IMG/VR virus record: IMGVR_UViG_3300027749_000034
Length of the DNA: 64,000 nt
From: a virus
Lineage: Duplodnaviria > Caudoviricetes
Strand: one strand, 5' to 3'
The position numbers and the translations under genes were made by a program. The notes below the pieces were generated by a model, which ran no database searches, was not told where the DNA came from, and saw only the letters and a list, made by a program, of their open reading frames with translations. This document shows, piece by piece, positions 6,176 through 11,583 of the stretch. Position 1 is the stretch's first letter, and every line of letters begins with the position of its first letter.

Positions 6176-6203
6176 TTGACAAACTGATTTTTTGTGCTAT
6201 AAT
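6176..6203 (+). promoter_or_regulatory. sigma70 promoter
   Basis: TTGACA-N16-TATAAT with TGn extended -10. Confidence 0.8.
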
Positions 6204-6223
6204 AGTCTTTTAGAAGGATTTAT

Positions 6224-6445
6224 ATGACCAACAAACAACGAGCTGTATTTGAAACTGTCAAGATGGTTGTAATTTTTATTGTAATGGGTCTGACATTCAG
6301 TACCATCATACAAACTGGCTATGGCGTATACTTGGGTATTGCCATGGTTGCACTTGGCGTGGTGTATGCATTGATCATGATGTATGAAATGAAGCTGGGC
6401 CAAATTGAATCAAAACAAAGACTAGACGAACTATCAAAAAATTAA
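6224..6445 (+). CDS. small two-TM membrane protein
   Basis: Two hydrophobic segments; GAAGGA SD. Confidence 0.7.
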   Translation: MTNKQRAVFETVKMVVIFIVMGLTFSTIIQTGYGVYLGIAMVALGVVYALIMMYEMKLGQIESKQRLDELSKN

Positions 6446-6472
6446 TAATTTTAGCCTTAACGCAACAAGAGG

Positions 6473-6501
6473 TTGACAACAAGGCTAAGTAAGTGTACAA
6501 T
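6473..6501 (+). promoter_or_regulatory. sigma70 promoter (leaderless)
   Basis: TTGACA-N17-TACAAT, ATG 6509 seven nt downstream. Confidence 0.8.
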
Positions 6502-6508
6502 GATTACT

Positions 6509-6628
6509 ATGACGAACACATTCATATCAAGACTATCGCAGTGGTGCTCAAAACAGAGCATGAGCTTCTGTGACTCCTTTAGTATGAGCTATCATGTTCG
6601 CCATATTCTAGGAGCTCATCCAGGATAA
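6509..6628 (+). CDS. putative 39-aa leader peptide (MTNTFISRLSQWCSKQSMSFCDSFSMSYHVRHILGAHPG)
   Basis: Starts at predicted +1 and ends 21 nt before an intrinsic terminator. Confidence 0.6.
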   Translation: MTNTFISRLSQWCSKQSMSFCDSFSMSYHVRHILGAHPG

Positions 6629-6649
6629 AGTAATCAGACCGTTTACTTG

Positions 6650-6684
6650 AACCCTGGACTAACACTCCGGGGTTTTTTCTTTTT
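6650..6684 (+). terminator. intrinsic terminator / attenuator
   Basis: AACCCTGGA-loop7-TCCGGGGTT stem followed by TTTTCTTTTT. Confidence 0.8.
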
Positions 6685-6697
6685 GTGATAAGGAACA

Positions 6698-6853
6698 ATG
6701 ACATTAGATAAAAAGATCAAAGAAGCAGAGTGGACACGCACTCATACATTGAGCAAAGAGCAGTTACAAAAATTGCTCCGTGACAAGATGAAGAGAGCGC
6801 AACACATGCATCAGTTAAACAAGCGAGAGATGTTGACTCAGAGACATCGTTGA
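6698..6853 (+). CDS. 51-aa basic hypothetical protein
   Basis: AAGGA SD; MTLDKKIKEAEW...QRHR. Confidence 0.65.
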   Translation: MTLDKKIKEAEWTRTHTLSKEQLQKLLRDKMKRAQHMHQLNKREMLTQRHR

Positions 6854-6864
6854 TCGCCAAGTGG

Positions 6865-6894
6865 TTGACAGGAAACGAGGTCCTGTGCTACACT
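6865..6894 (+). promoter_or_regulatory. sigma70 promoter for the RNA array
   Basis: TTGACA-N18-TACACT with TGn. Confidence 0.7.
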
Positions 6895-6957
6895 ATAAAC
6901 AAGCACAAACGGGCGGTACTAGGGATGAAGCACCTTGTGTGGTGTGAAAAATCTAGT

Positions 6958-7050
6958 ATATTAAAGCATATACTTGCCTGACTGCAAACGTCGTGGTAAA
7001 CTACTAGAGAAAGGGGTTCAAATCCCCGGGACTGGTATGTGCTTTAATAT
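6958..7050 (+). ncRNA. tRNA-like RNA closed by a 16-bp helix
   Basis: ATATTAAAGCATATAC/GTATGTGCTTTAATAT stem enclosing GGGG-TTCAAAT-CCCC T-arm. Confidence 0.55.
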
Positions 7051-7098
7051 ACACATTGAGCTGGCCAGGACTGTAATGTCGCAGACAGTGTGTTTAAC

Positions 7099-7183
7099 GG
7101 AGAAGAAGCATCAATGGTGATGCAGTGGACTGTAAATCCGCCGCCTTCGGGCACGACTGGTTCGATCCCAGTATTCTCCACCA
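7099..7183 (+). tRNA. tRNA-Tyr(GTA)
   Basis: Cloverleaf, CTGTAAA loop, long variable arm, CCA. Confidence 0.92.
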
Positions 7184-7188
7184 ATTTA

Positions 7189-7280
7189 GGAAGTGTGGCC
7201 GAGTCCGGTTTATGGCACTAGTCTTGAAAACTAGCGGAGGGTTAAACCTCCCGTGAGTTCGAATCTCACCGCTTCCGCCA
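7189..7280 (+). tRNA. tRNA-Ser(TGA)
   Basis: Cloverleaf, CTTGAAA loop, long variable arm, GCCA. Confidence 0.92.
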
Positions 7281-7287
7281 TGTCAAT

Positions 7288-7362
7288 GGGCCAGTAGCTT
7301 AATGGTAAAGCAACCGACTCATAATCGGTCGAGTCTTGGTTCAATTCCAAGCTGGCCCACCA
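7288..7362 (+). tRNA. tRNA-Ile2/Met(CAT)
   Basis: CTCATAA loop, GGGCC acceptor resembling Ile2, ACCA. Confidence 0.85.
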
Positions 7363-7368
7363 GTTTAT

Positions 7369-7443
7369 GCCCTGTTAGTTCAACGGATAGAATTAGAGTC
7401 TTCGAAACTCAGGATGGTGGTTCGATTCCATCACAGGGCGCCA
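7369..7443 (+). tRNA. tRNA-Arg(TCG)
   Basis: CTTCGAA loop, GCCA end. Confidence 0.88.
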
Positions 7444-7446
7444 AGT

Positions 7447-7646
7447 TTTGTTAGAGTGTCAGCAAGAGAAAGACTCGCTAGAAGGCTTCTTCGAAGGGCC
7501 GACTAATGTTAAAGAAGGACGGGTTCAAGTCCCGTAAACGCAGTGGAGCACCTTTGTCCTGTATCCCAAGTGACTTACCGAATCCCGCTCGAGCTTGTTA
7601 ATTCGGGTGAATGGTGCTTATAATGTGGTAGCACTACTTTAACAAA
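7447..7646 (+). ncRNA. unclassified 200-nt multi-branched RNA with T-arm
   Basis: 12-bp end-to-end stem, ACGGG-TTCAAGT-CCCGT T-arm, GAGCACC/GGTGCTT and further helices; sits between two tRNAs. Confidence 0.65.
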
Positions 7647-7654
7647 TTCAACAT

Positions 7655-7732
7655 GTACAGATGCCCGAGAGGCCCAAGGGAACTGATTGCAAACCAGTAA
7701 AGCCGTCGGTTCAAATCCGACTCTGTACTCCA
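7655..7732 (+). tRNA. tRNA-Cys(GCA)
   Basis: TTGCAAA loop, U73 discriminator, CCA. Confidence 0.9.
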
Positions 7733-7733
7733 A

Positions 7734-7808
7734 GGTAATGTAGCATAATGGTAGTGCGCCTGCTTCATACGCAGTCCAGTGCTAGTTCGACTCTAGCCAT
7801 TACCACCA
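7734..7808 (+). tRNA. tRNA-Met(CAT)
   Basis: TTCATAC loop, GGTAATG/CATTACC acceptor, ACCA. Confidence 0.88.
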
Positions 7809-7828
7809 ATTTTATAGGAGAGCCTGTT

Positions 7829-7966
7829 ATGGCCAGTGTCAAGAAAGGAACGATGACTCGTTCACCACAGTGGTGGAAACACCTTAAAGAATGGAAGCGT
7901 GTGTTCTGGAAAGCAGAACGACAAGCTCACAAAAAAGCGGGTATAGCTCAGTTGGTAGAGCAGTAG
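7829..7966 (+). CDS. 45-aa basic hypothetical protein ending inside tRNA-Lys
   Basis: GGAG SD; MASVKKGTMTRSPQWWKHL...; stop TAG lies within the tRNA. Confidence 0.6.
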   Translation: MASVKKGTMTRSPQWWKHLKEWKRVFWKAERQAHKKAGIAQLVEQ

Positions 7967-8012
7967 ACTTTTAATCTATTGGTCGTGGGTTCGAATCCCT
8001 CTGCCCGCACCA
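7937..8012 (+). tRNA. tRNA-Lys(TTT)
   Basis: Canonical cloverleaf, CTTTTAA loop, ACCA. Confidence 0.95.
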
Positions 8013-8025
8013 ATAAATAGTTGTA

Positions 8026-8370
8026 ATGAAAATTCAGCAAGACAGCACCGGACTTTATATTGAAACAGATGAAGTAGTCTGTCGTCCAGTTGAATCAAGT
8101 CAATTCAAATCAGATGAAGAGGTTCGGCTGGCACTTGATGCTGAAATAGCCACGGTCAGTGATGCCAATGATCGCGGTGCAAATGCCTTTGAAGAACAGT
8201 GGCAAGCAGTATACAAATCTCAGCCGGCTAGAGTTACGTCAGCGCCGGTAACTCATCCACCCATGTATTATGTAGAACACACAGGTTGGTATACTGCAAT
8301 CATAATCCTACTGGGCGTCACTGGGTTTGACCTTGGTCTTCTTGTTGGCACCATCTGGGCCAGGCTTTAA
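8026..8370 (+). CDS. hypothetical protein with C-terminal TM
   Basis: ORF; TAAATA-N6-ATG. Confidence 0.65.
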   Translation: MKIQQDSTGLYIETDEVVCRPVESSQFKSDEEVRLALDAEIATVSDANDRGANAFEEQWQAVYKSQPARVTSAPVTHPPMYYVEHTGWYTAIIILLGVTGFDLGLLVGTIWARL

Positions 8371-8501
8371 TTCCAACGGTTGAAACTGCAACTTGGCTTT
8401 GGCCAGAAGAGCATCTGGTTTAAAGTCTGCAGGTAAACACCAGGTGGCGCTGGGCAACAATTTAGATTTAACACTCATACAGTATTTAAGATCATTTAGG
8501 T

Positions 8502-8574
8502 GTGACCTTAGTGTTAGCGGTCAGCACCTCGGATTGTGATTCCGATAGGATGGGTTCAAATCCCATAGGTCACC
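8502..8574 (+). tRNA. tRNA-His(GTG), atypical (no G-1, no CCA, extended helix)
   Basis: TTGTGAT loop, C73, followed by CCT. Confidence 0.8.
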
Positions 8575-8591
8575 CCTAAACGATCTTTATT

Positions 8592-8667
8592 GCCAAGATA
8601 GCTCATCTGGTAGAGCACCTGTTTGAAGCACAGGGTGTGGTTGGTTCGAGTCCAACTCTTGGTACCA
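8592..8667 (+). tRNA. tRNA-Phe(GAA)
   Basis: TTGAAGC loop, ACCA. Confidence 0.9.
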
Positions 8668-8676
8668 AGTTTCTGT

Positions 8677-8750
8677 TCGGGAATGGTGTAATGGTAACAC
8701 AACACACTTTGACTGTGTCGTTCTAGGTTCGAGTCCTAGTTCCCGTGCCA
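8677..8750 (+). tRNA. tRNA-Gln(TTG)
   Basis: CTTTGAC loop, 1:72 mismatch, GCCA. Confidence 0.9.
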
Positions 8751-8769
8751 AATTTATAAGTAAGTTTAT

Positions 8770-8846
8770 AGCCTCATAGCTCAGTTGGTTAGAGCATTGT
8801 CTTGATAAGGCAAGGGTCCCCTGTTCGAGTCAGGGTGAGGCTACCA
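8770..8846 (+). tRNA. tRNA-Ile(GAT)
   Basis: CTGATAA-type loop (TTGATAA), ACCA. Confidence 0.9.
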
Positions 8847-8853
8847 GGATATT

Positions 8854-8994
8854 ATGAAAAAATTATTGTCAATCTGCGTACTTGCAACAGTTGCCGCATG
8901 CGGTTCAATGCCCAAGACTTGCTCTGTGCCTGGTGAGCAAGGTTGTACAAAGATACCGGCAATAATGATTCCAATTTTCAGCAAACAGTTTTAA
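8854..8994 (+). CDS. 46-aa putative lipoprotein
   Basis: MKKLLSICVLATVAA-C-GS lipobox-type signal. Confidence 0.6.
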   Translation: MKKLLSICVLATVAACGSMPKTCSVPGEQGCTKIPAIMIPIFSKQF

Positions 8995-9068
8995 GGGTCA
9001 TTAGTATAATGGCAGTACTGCGGTCTCCAAAACCGTTAGTGGGAGTTCGAGTCTCTCATGGCCCGCCA
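8995..9068 (+). tRNA. tRNA-Trp(CCA)
   Basis: CTCCAAA loop, G73, CCA. Confidence 0.92.
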
Positions 9069-9089
9069 ATTACACCTAATAGGTAAATC

Positions 9090-10061
9090 ATGTCAGTTAT
9101 TTTATTTTCGCATCCACGCAGTGGAAGCAGTCACTATACCGCAATGTTGCATTGGCATAATCAGCACAAGTATAAAAACCAAAGCATATACCTTTTTGAA
9201 TTTTTTACAATACATTGCACAGATACATTTGGGCAAGCCGGCGATATACTTTACAACCTTGAGTTATATGGTAAACCTATTCAAGTCTGTGAGTTAGTTG
9301 ATGCAGTATGGAATCGTCAGTGGTTGTATTGGCAAATTGAATCCAATCAGGACCCTGCTGACTTGTTGCCAATGATGCTAAAAAACAAAACTGTAATTTT
9401 TAAAAATTTTCAAGAAGTCCAGCAGTGGTATACAGCAGAATGTTTAAAGAGGTTGAGCTGGCTTAAATTTTTAACCAACAGCAAAATTCATTATGTTGTG
9501 AAACATTTTTTTCTCAGCCAAGAACTCAACATTGATGCTGAGCTGATAGAGTTTGCCAAGTCAGCTCAGCAGGCCAAACTGTATTATAGGCAGGACTTTT
9601 ATCAAACTTTATTGAGTCATCTTATTAAGACTTGTTATTATGATATACCTGGTGCACAACAGAGTCTAACAAATCGTGGACAGGATGCACACAATATACA
9701 AAATAAAATGTCTCCACTACAACCAATGTCATTGTCATTGGAAAAAGATCAACTGTTGAAGTGGATTGATCCTTTTGTATTATTTTTAAATTTTGTCAAA
9801 AACAACAAATTTGATGCGGTAGACATATTGTTGTATGAAGACTTTTTAGCAAAAAAATCAATTCAAATTGACGGGCAAGAAATAAAGTTAGAAATAATTG
9901 ATGCTAAATTCATGCGGACCAAAGAGTTTCCAATGAATTATGCTGTGAGTAAAGATCAATATTTTATCAACAGTGAATTGATTAAGAGCGTGGTCTATGA
10001 AAAAATTGTTGACCAGCACCTGCTAGAAACAATGCAAATGCTAGGTATTCGATTGTTGTAA
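9090..10061 (+). CDS. sulfotransferase-like P-loop protein
   Basis: SHPRSGSS (5'-PSB-like), YRQDFYQTLLS (R-x7-S), LLYEDF. Confidence 0.55.
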   Translation: MSVILFSHPRSGSSHYTAMLHWHNQHKYKNQSIYLFEFFTIHCTDTFGQAGDILYNLELYGKPIQVCELVDAVWNRQWLYWQIESNQDPADLLPMMLKNKTVIFKNFQEVQQWYTAECLKRLSWLKFLTNSKIHYVVKHFFLSQELNIDAELIEFAKSAQQAKLYYRQDFYQTLLSHLIKTCYYDIPGAQQSLTNRGQDAHNIQNKMSPLQPMSLSLEKDQLLKWIDPFVLFLNFVKNNKFDAVDILLYEDFLAKKSIQIDGQEIKLEIIDAKFMRTKEFPMNYAVSKDQYFINSELIKSVVYEKIVDQHLLETMQMLGIRLL

Positions 10062-10075
10062 TTGATCAAACACAT

Positions 10076-10150
10076 ACCACTATAGTTCAATGGATAGAAT
10101 CGGGTCCTCCTAAGACTTGGATACAGGTTCGATTCCTGTTGGTGGGACCA
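10076..10150 (+). tRNA. tRNA-Arg(CCT)
   Basis: CTCCTAA loop, ACCA. Confidence 0.85.
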
Positions 10151-10158
10151 AAGTCAAT

Positions 10159-10235
10159 ACCCCGGTGGCGCAATTGGTAGACGCACCTCTCTCAAAAGGA
10201 GGGTGTTGAGAGTTCGAATCTCTCCCGGGGTACCA
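10159..10235 (+). tRNA. tRNA-Leu(CAA), short variable loop
   Basis: Leu-type D-arm (GGTAGACGC), CTCAAAA loop, 5-nt variable region, ACCA. Confidence 0.8.
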
Positions 10236-10245
10236 TTATAGTTTG

Positions 10246-10821
10246 TTATATAAAAATCTTAGATGCCAATAATTCATACGGCATCAGTTTATTTGTTGCG
10301 TCAGTCACTGTGAAAGAGACTGTGTATCGAGTTTCTTCCGTGGTTGTTACATTGTGTGGAATTCCAGTTTGTACAATGTTGTATCCAACAAGATGTTTGC
10401 TGTACAGCAAATTTACCTGATCTGCCGTAAAGCTTGCATAATTGTTTGAATAGTTATTTTTACGAGATATCTTTGTTACTTTTGGTGTGTACCAATTAAG
10501 CACTCCGCCACTGGAGTTGGAAATGTAATTGATCTTGGCCATATTTCCTGGCATCATGTAATCTGCATCAGCGCCATCGGTATGAATCATTGAGGTAAAA
10601 TTAGTTGGGTAGTAAAAAAGCTCGCAACCACGAACCAGCAAGCCCCTTCCTGCCAAGAAGCTGATCACATTGTGGTCAATGTACTTGGAAACTGTAGAAT
10701 CTTTTGAATTAAAAATAGTAGACCTATTGTAAACACCTTTGGCACTAATTAATTTCAACAGGCGTAATCCAGATACAGATAACGGACCATAAGATAAGCT
10801 GAAGTTTTTATACAATTCCAT
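10246..10821 (-). CDS. cupin/2OG-Fe(II) oxygenase-like protein
   Basis: IHTDG...IPHNV; start ATG 10821 preceded by TAAATA-N4. Confidence 0.55.
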   Translation of the reverse strand: MELYKNFSLSYGPLSVSGLRLLKLISAKGVYNRSTIFNSKDSTVSKYIDHNVISFLAGRGLLVRGCELFYYPTNFTSMIHTDGADADYMMPGNMAKINYISNSSGGVLNWYTPKVTKISRKNNYSNNYASFTADQVNLLYSKHLVGYNIVQTGIPHNVTTTEETRYTVSFTVTDATNKLMPYELLASKIFI

Positions 10822-10843
10822 GCGATATTTATTCAACAAGTCA

Positions 10844-10873
10844 TTGACAACAGTAGGTTAAATAGTTTATAAT
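10844..10873 (+). promoter_or_regulatory. sigma70 promoter for the second tRNA block
   Basis: TTGACA-N18-TATAAT. Confidence 0.7.
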
Positions 10874-10892
10874 AAATTTTACAGAGTAAATT

Positions 10893-10982
10893 GGAGCGGT
10901 CCTATAATGGTATTAGAGCAGATTGCTAATCTGTCGCTCGGCGTAATCCGGGTTCTGAGTTCGAGTCTCAGTCGCTCCGCCA
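10893..10982 (+). tRNA. tRNA-Ser(GCT)
   Basis: TTGCTAA loop, long variable arm, GCCA. Confidence 0.92.
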
Positions 10983-11001
10983 AACACAACGAAAGCACAG
11001 T

Positions 11002-11166
11002 ATGAAGCCAGGTAAAACATTTCGATTAAGCAAAACAACCAAGCGAATGCTATGTAGCATTGTTGATACAACCAAGCGTAATGCTTGGAAGGCCGCAATG
11101 ATTCAAGCAGAGTTGGCCGCAGGTGTAGTTGTCAAGAGAGAGCCAAAAGAAGGACAGCGTAAGTAA
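11002..11166 (+). CDS. 54-aa basic hypothetical protein
   Basis: MKPGKTFRLSKTTKRM...; fills the gap between tRNAs. Confidence 0.65.
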   Translation: MKPGKTFRLSKTTKRMLCSIVDTTKRNAWKAAMIQAELAAGVVVKREPKEGQRK

Positions 11167-11175
11167 AGTTTTTTT

Positions 11176-11259
11176 GCCCCGGTGGTGTAATGGTAGCCAC
11201 GCTGGTCTTAGAAGCCAGTGCCGAAAGGCGTGTCGGTTCGAGTCCGACCTGGGGCACCA
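11176..11259 (+). tRNA. tRNA-Leu(TAG)
   Basis: CTTAGAA loop, GCC-GAAA-GGC variable arm, ACCA. Confidence 0.93.
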
Positions 11260-11276
11260 TAATTTAAAGGTCAAAT

Positions 11277-11498
11277 ATGCCAACAGTCTATACTGAAGTC
11301 GAAGTCGATGTAAGTCTAAGTGATTTTGATACCGAAGATCTAATTGAAGAATTAGAATCTCGAGGTAACTTGCCAATTGAGGGCAATACCGACGCTAAAG
11401 AGCTAGTCGAGTCAATGTATCTAAAGCGTAGAAATGGCAAAGACTACCAGCAAGAGTTGGACCAACTGATTTATCGAGTCCTTGGTAAGATCGTTTAA
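11277..11498 (+). CDS. hypothetical protein
   Basis: ORF with AAGGT SD. Confidence 0.7.
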   Translation: MPTVYTEVEVDVSLSDFDTEDLIEELESRGNLPIEGNTDAKELVESMYLKRRNGKDYQQELDQLIYRVLGKIV

Positions 11499-11508
11499 AT
11501 TGCATCAT

Positions 11509-11583
11509 CTGGCCATAGTACAATGGATAGTACATAGAGCTTCTACCTCTAGAATGTGGGTTCGATTCCTGCTGGCCGGGCCA
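11509..11583 (+). tRNA. tRNA-Arg(TCT)
   Basis: CTTCTAC loop, GCCA. Confidence 0.88.

Follow-up and report, generated by a model that had tools for sequence, protein, structure and literature searches.

A candidate ribosome-mediated attenuator with a codon-sampling leader heads a tRNA gene array in uncultured freshwater phages

Introduction

It is not settled why phages carry transfer RNA (tRNA) genes or by what means these are controlled; the roles proposed for the genes are the matching of codon usage, compensation for the effects of host shut-off, and evasion of tRNA-cleaving defences. The question of control is raised directly by one locus in the window, by which we mean the whole stretch of 64,000 nucleotides (nt) analysed here, a phage-like freshwater contig from the Caudoviricetes virus record IMGVR_UViG_3300027749_000034. 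At positions 6473-6853, ahead of a tRNA gene cluster that we term array 2, a sigma-70-type promoter is followed by a short open reading frame (ORF), an intrinsic terminator, and a second ORF of 51 amino acids (aa). An earlier note on this DNA, made from its letters alone, had described the promoter, a leaderless 39-aa ORF, the terminator, the 51-aa ORF and the array, and each was found where it had been placed.

Does this module control the tRNA genes downstream, and if so, to what does it respond? By comparing the locus with its relatives, we come to the view that it is probably a ribosome-mediated transcription attenuator, heading the second of the phage's tRNA arrays and sensing the supply of the tRNAs that it gates. 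One indication is that the short leader ORF is composed almost entirely of the amino acids served by the array behind it, and that a paralogous leader in related phages is composed of those served by another array.

Results

A conserved module precedes tRNA arrays in uncultured phages

One relative, L018, was located by a protein search with the 51-aa ORF; it is 78% identical to the window over 6433-6952, and keeps the frame of the leader despite indels of +3 and -6 nt. Pattern scans of viral and metagenome contigs were anchored on the stop-codon region and then, to counter bias, on the -10/ATG region. Between them they recovered the module of promoter, ORF and terminator in 22 distinct forms, which we call variants, on contigs of uncultured freshwater phages. 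The sole match among cultured phages was a 90-nt tRNA-Tyr in Limnohabitans phage DC31 (90% identical), with no close relative among them. Wherever a variant's contig extends far enough downstream, a tRNA array on the same strand begins 300-1700 nt after the module, and the DNA of the module is more strongly conserved than the flanking protein genes.

The promoter is conserved in 22/22 variants. The ATG at 6509 lies 7 nt 3' of the -10 hexamer, without a Shine-Dalgarno sequence, and the conserved spacing of 6-7 nt suggests that transcription starts at or beside the A of this ATG. Metatranscriptome contigs from four studies span the module, two of them crossing the terminator into the 51-aa ORF and one stopping at 6677; in such contigs RNA ends are not visible and carry-over of DNA is possible, and they were used for no inference.

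The leader is maintained as a coding sequence

The leader ORF is intact in 22/22 variants, at 37-40 aa, and every indel within it is a multiple of three, with four in-frame indels in all. Invariant residues are encoded by synonymous codons (Ile by ATA/ATT, Ser by TCA/TCT/TCC/TCG, and Arg by CGC/CGT), while several Ser positions alternate between the unrelated codon families AGY and TCN. This combination of frame retention, synonymous changes and Ser codon-family switches argues against a purely non-coding RNA, and the pattern of substitution indicates that the leader is under protein-level, or at least amino-acid-level, selection. The earlier note had named conservation of the leader in relatives as a check on its reading, and the leader is conserved in this way.

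The same signatures bear on an alternative that we regard as very improbable, in which the promoter-to-terminator unit produces a trans-acting RNA of ~175 nt, either a small RNA or a dual-function one, with the ORF secondary. Such an RNA would fit the compactness of the unit, its DNA conservation above that of the flanking protein genes, its conserved small hairpins, and its presence in metatranscriptome assemblies (as contigs only). However, the frame has been kept in all the variants through many substitutions and the four in-frame indels, and the Ser codon-family switches denote a constraint at the level of protein; nor does the unit match any Rfam family.

Nucleotide-level conservation is superimposed on the coding signal. 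There is no nucleotide change at CCA GGA TAA, in the next 7 nt, or at TGGTGCTC...CAGAGC, although synonymous change would be possible, and these unvarying codons indicate an overlapping constraint on the RNA. The conservation of the peptide itself centres on WCSKQS and RHILGxHPG-stop, with W, C, F, R-H-I, G and P-G invariant.

Leader composition mirrors the downstream tRNA set

Array 2 serves Tyr, Ser, Met, Arg, Cys, Lys, His, Phe, Gln, Ile, Trp and Leu. In the window, 29 of the 38 leader residues that follow the start Met are drawn from this set, and 12/12 of the array amino acids are used. Together these properties occur at a frequency of 2.4e-4 among 38-residue windows of the window's own proteins, and of 3e-4 in a simulation with independent, identically distributed residues. 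A first test, restricted to the 17 tRNAs of the window, had found 27/39 codons to be cognate against a background of 45% (empirical p 0.002), and was recast in this array-specific form. Seven variants have complete arrays; in these, the leader draws 77-85% of its residues from its own array set, and five of the seven leaders cover every array amino acid.

The match is not spread evenly over the leader. In the same seven variants, 180/191 central residues (94%) are in the set, against 22/49 (45%, the background level) in the last 7 codons. This difference is predicted by the footprint of the ribosome, since one stalled within ~7 codons of the stop would already cover 6619-6624, where the 5' arm of the candidate antiterminator lies, and would not free the antiterminator, such that only earlier codons could sense. 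The last codons are also those fixed by RNA pairing. Hence, with central codons that call almost only for array amino acids, the element would sense the supply of those tRNAs. There is no tandem run of a single regulatory codon in the leader; instead, its ~28 central codons sample all 11-12 array amino acids.

Across variants, the co-occurrence of Glu and of Leu in leader and array gave Fisher p values of ~0.05 each by hand count, representing one or two independent events each. An Rfam tRNA scan of the relatives added no anticodons and was not used.

Paralogous leaders use other amino acids

The contigs of four relatives were searched for the same terminator stem. On two of them, G001 (which carries L024, a variant 90% identical to the window in its module) and G004 (which carries L025), a second copy of the module (L160 and L161, respectively) lies 10-13 kilobases upstream, before a separate tRNA array, array 1. 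The paralogous module has the promoter, its -10 hexamer followed after 6 nt by the ATG, and the same terminator stem. Its stop codon again lies within a hairpin, and its last codons (L160:1464-1472) pair at 8/9 positions with the 5' arm of the terminator. The tRNA-Gly gene of L160 starts 5 nt past the T tract, leaving no room for a promoter.

Array 1 carries tRNAs for Gly, Glu, Leu(UAA), Asp, Asn, Met, Ala, Val, Thr, Pro and Gly, and 19/21 residues of the paralogous 21-aa leader fall within this set. Residues exclusive to array 1 or to array 2 are divided 15:2 in leader 1 versus 9:25 in leader 2 of G001 (Fisher p 5e-5), and 18:2 versus 6:28 in those of G004 (Fisher p 3e-7). The two contigs differ in the location of tRNA-Leu(UAG). 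In G001 it belongs to array 2, with CUA twice in leader 2 and UUA/UUG only in leader 1; in G004 it belongs to array 1, where leader 1 contains CUA twice and UUA twice, and leader 2 lacks Leu just as array 2 lacks a tRNA-Leu.

A third leader type, on other phage contigs (L169; L175/L178, G006:1-4800), has the GGATATATAATAACACT-ATG start context in common with the others, is 33-37 aa long and leaderless, and has a terminator unlike theirs. Behind it lies one array only, whose 23 tRNAs serve all 20 amino acids, and 19/20 amino acids are used within the 33-37 residues of the leader, with a p value of only 0.02-0.05. The paralogous 21-aa leader and this third type share the architecture of the module without peptide similarity.

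It is unlikely, given these comparisons, that the locus is instead an ordinary small-protein gene, in which a strong early promoter drives a leaderless, functional 39-aa protein ahead of a leaky but normal terminator, the tRNAs have promoters of their own, and the alternative hairpin has no regulatory role. The good conservation of the peptide under purifying selection in its WCSKQS and RHILGxHPG segments, the promoters within the arrays, and the lack of compensatory change in the antiterminator would all be in keeping with such a gene. Yet it leaves unexplained that the leader mirrors the downstream tRNA set and the paralogous leader the other set, that in-set residues fall to background solely in the last 7 codons, that nucleotides around and after the stop are invariant, and that promoterless genes begin 5-13 nt past the T tract. 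The 39-aa peptide matches no Pfam or PHROG family.

A conserved candidate antiterminator is predicted to compete with the terminator

An attenuator further depends on two exclusive RNA structures. The terminator is predicted at -14 kcal/mol, or at -17.4 kcal/mol together with the small hairpin; its stem is paired in 99% of alignment cells, and its basal pair changes from A-U to C-G in three variants, demonstrating covariation. The predicted antiterminator (-12.7 kcal/mol) pairs the last two codons of the leader with the loop-proximal part of the terminator's 5' arm, and is stacked on the stop-codon hairpin. It corresponds to the alternative hairpin of the earlier note, in both of its helices.

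To represent the RNA existing before the 3' arm of the terminator is made, each variant was cut at the terminator loop and folded, allowing the entire upstream leader to compete. In the minimum free energy (MFE) structure of 22/22 variants, positions -7 to -2 relative to the stop are the partners of the six loop-proximal bases in the 5' arm. Of 1000 dinucleotide shuffles of the upstream RNA, 0.5% placed the partners of these six bases in the last five codons or the stop (p 0.005). For the paralogous module, the shuffle test was significant in L165 (0.015) and not in L164 (0.16). All six pairs of the antiterminator core are invariant, making covariation uninformative there; hence, of the covariation that the earlier note had proposed to look for, that of the terminator was found, and the antiterminator gained no compensatory support. 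A further pairing in that note, between the two ATGAGCT (Met-Ser) repeats and AGCTCAT, is present in the window but does not survive comparison, as both partners change freely in relatives.

Two smaller hairpins lie within the leader. That at 6546-6559 is paired in 100% of alignment cells, with one compensatory change from C-G to U-A in L107, and is possibly a pause or synchronising hairpin. That at 6607-6625, whose pairs survive C/U swaps, could hold the 5' arm of the antiterminator, and was the sole candidate for a 1:2 protector helix (an anti-antiterminator); in MFE folds the antiterminator prevails over it, and no convincing conserved 1:2 helix was found among the 22 variants. An untranslated leader is therefore predicted to read through, unlike that of trp.

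The position of the stop codon inside this switch, together with the invariance of P-G-stop and of residues across the C-terminal 25 positions, could also suggest nascent-peptide arrest of the TnaC/SecM kind, in which a ligand or factor would cause the conserved peptide, with its Pro-Gly-stop end, to halt the ribosome on the stop codon, and the halted ribosome would fix the RNA fold. We judge this improbable. Leaders of the paralogous (21-aa) and third types have the same architecture without any similarity of peptide, and it is the composition that tracks the tRNA set; P-G-stop is equally explained by the RNA pairing that it encodes; and arrest at the stop would favour termination, leaving the logic of a ligand unclear.

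The region beyond the terminator

In an attenuator, the regulated genes lie beyond the terminator with no promoter intervening, and none separates the terminator of the module from the gene that follows it. That gene in the window, the 51-aa ORF, begins 13 nt after the T tract and has no promoter of its own, meaning it is expressible by read-through only. It is 61% identical in L018, but is missing from about half of the variants, where structured RNA directly follows the T tract, and is therefore better regarded as an optional passenger than as the regulated target. The earlier note had held that the 51-aa protein, and possibly the tRNAs, are up-regulated; the tRNA region remains as the probable gated target, as suggested by the composition mirror and the arrays downstream, and the 51-aa protein does not.

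The structured RNA opens with two hairpins (6868-6905), which have the invariant loops AACGAGG and ACACUAUAAACA on freely covarying stems (at least 10 different complementary stems), and which were found in 21/21 variants whose DNA extends this far. They are followed by AAAYGGGCGG and by more covarying helices. A search of 6473-7098 against Rfam, with E values up to 1, returned tRNA only, with no match for the structured RNA, and neither a T-box nor any other curated cis-regulatory family. The second promoter that the earlier note had placed at 6865, as an independent source of tRNA transcripts, overlies this conserved structured RNA, and its -35 hexamer TTGACA is present in only 3/21 variants.

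Further into the structured RNA, at 6958-7050, a long AU-rich helix surrounds a tRNA-like insert with the T-arm GGGG-UUCAAAU-CCCC. In L023 and L024 this helix encloses unrelated or much shorter inserts, and hence the insert behaves like a swappable cassette. In G001 (L164:13400-13433), a perfect TTGACA/17 nt/TATAAT promoter lies within a 12-base-pair (bp) hairpin directly 5' of the first array-2 tRNAs; in the window, the counterpart hairpin is kept at 7050-7098, with degenerate promoter hexamers.

Layout of the locus

The coordinates of the features are collected in Table 1. The order of array 2 in the window is Tyr, Ser, Met, Arg, Cys, Met, Lys, His, Phe, Gln, Ile, Trp, Arg, Leu, Ser, Leu, Arg. 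The first of these, tRNA-Tyr(GTA) at 7099-7180, has a long variable arm, and is missed by ARAGORN and detected by Rfam at 35.3 bits.

Table 1. Coordinates of the module and its surroundings in the window, with the leader of the paralogous module in two relatives
Feature	Position	Strand	Details
Sigma-70-type promoter	6473-6501	+	TTGACA 6473-6478, 17-nt spacer, TACAAT 6496-6501; 11/12 match
Leader ORF	6509-6628	+	39 codons and TAA (6626-6628); putatively leaderless
Small hairpin GCUC-N6-GAGC	6546-6559	+	Within the WCSKQS codons
Weak local hairpin UCUAGGA/UCCAGGA	6607-6625	+	RNAalifold consensus
Antiterminator (predicted)	6619-6658	+	6619-6624 with 6653-6658; 6628-6633 with 6643-6648
Intrinsic terminator	6649-6684	+	10-bp stem 6649-6675, 7-nt loop, T tract to 6684
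51-aa basic ORF	6698-6853	+	Own AAGGA Shine-Dalgarno sequence
Structured RNA	6868 to ~7098	+	Two opening hairpins at 6868-6905
tRNA array 2	7099-11583	+	17 tRNA genes; ARAGORN, first tRNA-Tyr from Rfam only
Paralogous 21-codon leader ORF	L160:1411-1476; L161:1409-1474		

The spacer of the module's promoter (6479-6495, GGCUAAGUAAGUG) is almost invariant over the 22 variants, which is unusual for a spacer; a regulator of phage or host could use it as an operator. Upstream, at 6176-6445, a promoter with a 12/12 consensus match and an extended -10 TG precedes an ORF for a predicted membrane protein of 73 aa, which is missing from the relative seen in one metatranscriptome contig. Neither this ORF nor the 51-aa ORF had any meaningful match in PHROGs or Pfam.

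Discussion

The comparative evidence is consistent with a module that reads the supply of a defined set of tRNAs, and in doing so determines whether more are transcribed. In the footprint logic, direction of switching and physiological signal that we infer, host RNA polymerase would start at or next to A6509, producing a leaderless messenger RNA (mRNA), the 39 codons of which would be translated by a 70S ribosome. A ribosome keeping pace with the polymerase would be on the last codons or the stop (6619-6628) as 6653-6675 emerges, and its footprint would cover 6619-6633, comprising the antiterminator 5' arm and that of the stop-codon hairpin. The 5' arm of the terminator would then be free to pair with its 3' arm, and transcription would end at ~6684. 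Were the ribosome instead delayed in codons ~5-32, the antiterminator would form first and sequester the six loop-proximal terminator bases, allowing the polymerase to proceed through the structured RNA to the tRNAs, by way of the 51-aa ORF where there is one; read-through is likewise predicted where there is no translation. The net effect would be negative feedback, with the element acting as a homeostatic sensor of the array's tRNA supply, shortage of which could stem from host shut-off, starvation, or tRNA-cleaving defences.

The earlier note had ascribed the trp/his logic to this locus. The core of that reading, in which a ribosome at the stop codon blocks the antiterminator and a lagging one permits read-through, fits the comparative evidence; in the strict sense, however, the locus is not of the trp/his type, as it has no run of a single codon and no conserved 1:2 protector helix to enforce termination. 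It has much in common with enterobacterial attenuators such as ilvGMEDA and thr (and also trp, his, leu and pheA): a short promoter-proximal ORF, a terminator before the structural genes, a predicted antiterminator, the 5' arm of which would be masked once a ribosome arrives at the last codons, and regulatory codons that are cognate to the product, with ilv and thr also sensing more than one amino acid. It differs from them in its proposed gating of tRNA genes rather than biosynthetic enzymes; in being encoded by a phage, and duplicated, with one sensor per array; in sampling 11-12 amino acids (~19 in the related phage with a single array) over ~28 codons rather than through a tandem run; and in its probably leaderless mRNA, and an untranslated state that is predicted to read through.

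Leader-peptide attenuation is known to act on a component of the translation apparatus in the pheM leader of Escherichia coli pheST, which provides feedback on the supply of charged tRNA. The only amino acid that pheM reads is Phe, from a run of its codons, and its target is a synthetase, whereas tRNA genes would be controlled here. The T-box shares the goal of reading through into translation-related genes when a particular tRNA is inadequately charged, but binds the uncharged tRNA directly and needs no ribosome. In pyrBI/pyrE, as proposed here, the outcome is set by the distance between RNA polymerase and the first ribosome. There, a close ribosome prevents the terminator from forming, as the ORF runs through it, and pausing dependent on uridine triphosphate sets the gap; here, a close ribosome would promote termination, and the speed of the ribosome would set the gap.

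Several observations weigh against attenuation by tRNA supply, or restrict its reach. Firstly, the composition test was chosen after the data had been seen, and what matches is the amino acid, with the codon not always following: in the L025 leader six Ser codons are of the UCN family, and ARAGORN found no tRNA-Ser(UGA) on its contig. Secondly, leaders and arrays do not correspond perfectly, as Asp, Thr and Val are present in leaders whose array has no such tRNAs, while L057 has tRNA-Glu and tRNA-Thr and a leader with neither Glu nor Thr. Thirdly, the antiterminator core shows no compensatory change, and the flanking pair, which is A-U in 8, G-C in 5, U-A in 1 and unpaired in 7 of 21 rows, is only suggestive. 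Fourthly, the invariant residues of the peptide could reflect a function of the peptide instead. Finally, the module is not isolated from other transcription. Several groups of tRNA genes have strong promoters of their own (at 10844 in the window, and just before tRNA-Tyr/Met in G001), meaning that the attenuator cannot be the sole control of the arrays. There is also no terminator between the unit of the 6176 promoter and the promoter of the module, and hence transcripts from 6176 can enter the module carrying a 5' leader.

Full-text searches of a literature collection found no description of such control of tRNA genes. Three features of the proposed control are new, namely tRNA genes as the target, the sampling of many amino acids on a leaderless mRNA, and the provision of one sensor per array. 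We see roughly even chances that the wider generalisation holds, namely that phage tRNA arrays are under homeostatic feedback from codon-sampling leaders, with each array preceded by one leaderless test ORF, the array being transcribed only when that ORF is read slowly. It would be the first case in which tRNA genes are under leader-peptide attenuation, and a direct sensor through which a virus responds to the depletion or cleavage of host tRNAs, widespread in freshwater phages. The presence of two complementary sensors in one genome makes the idea directly testable. If it is true, classical attenuation would extend to tRNA genes, and to a design in which many amino acids are each sampled once or a few times, and the phage would be shown to measure the tRNA supply and top it up on demand.
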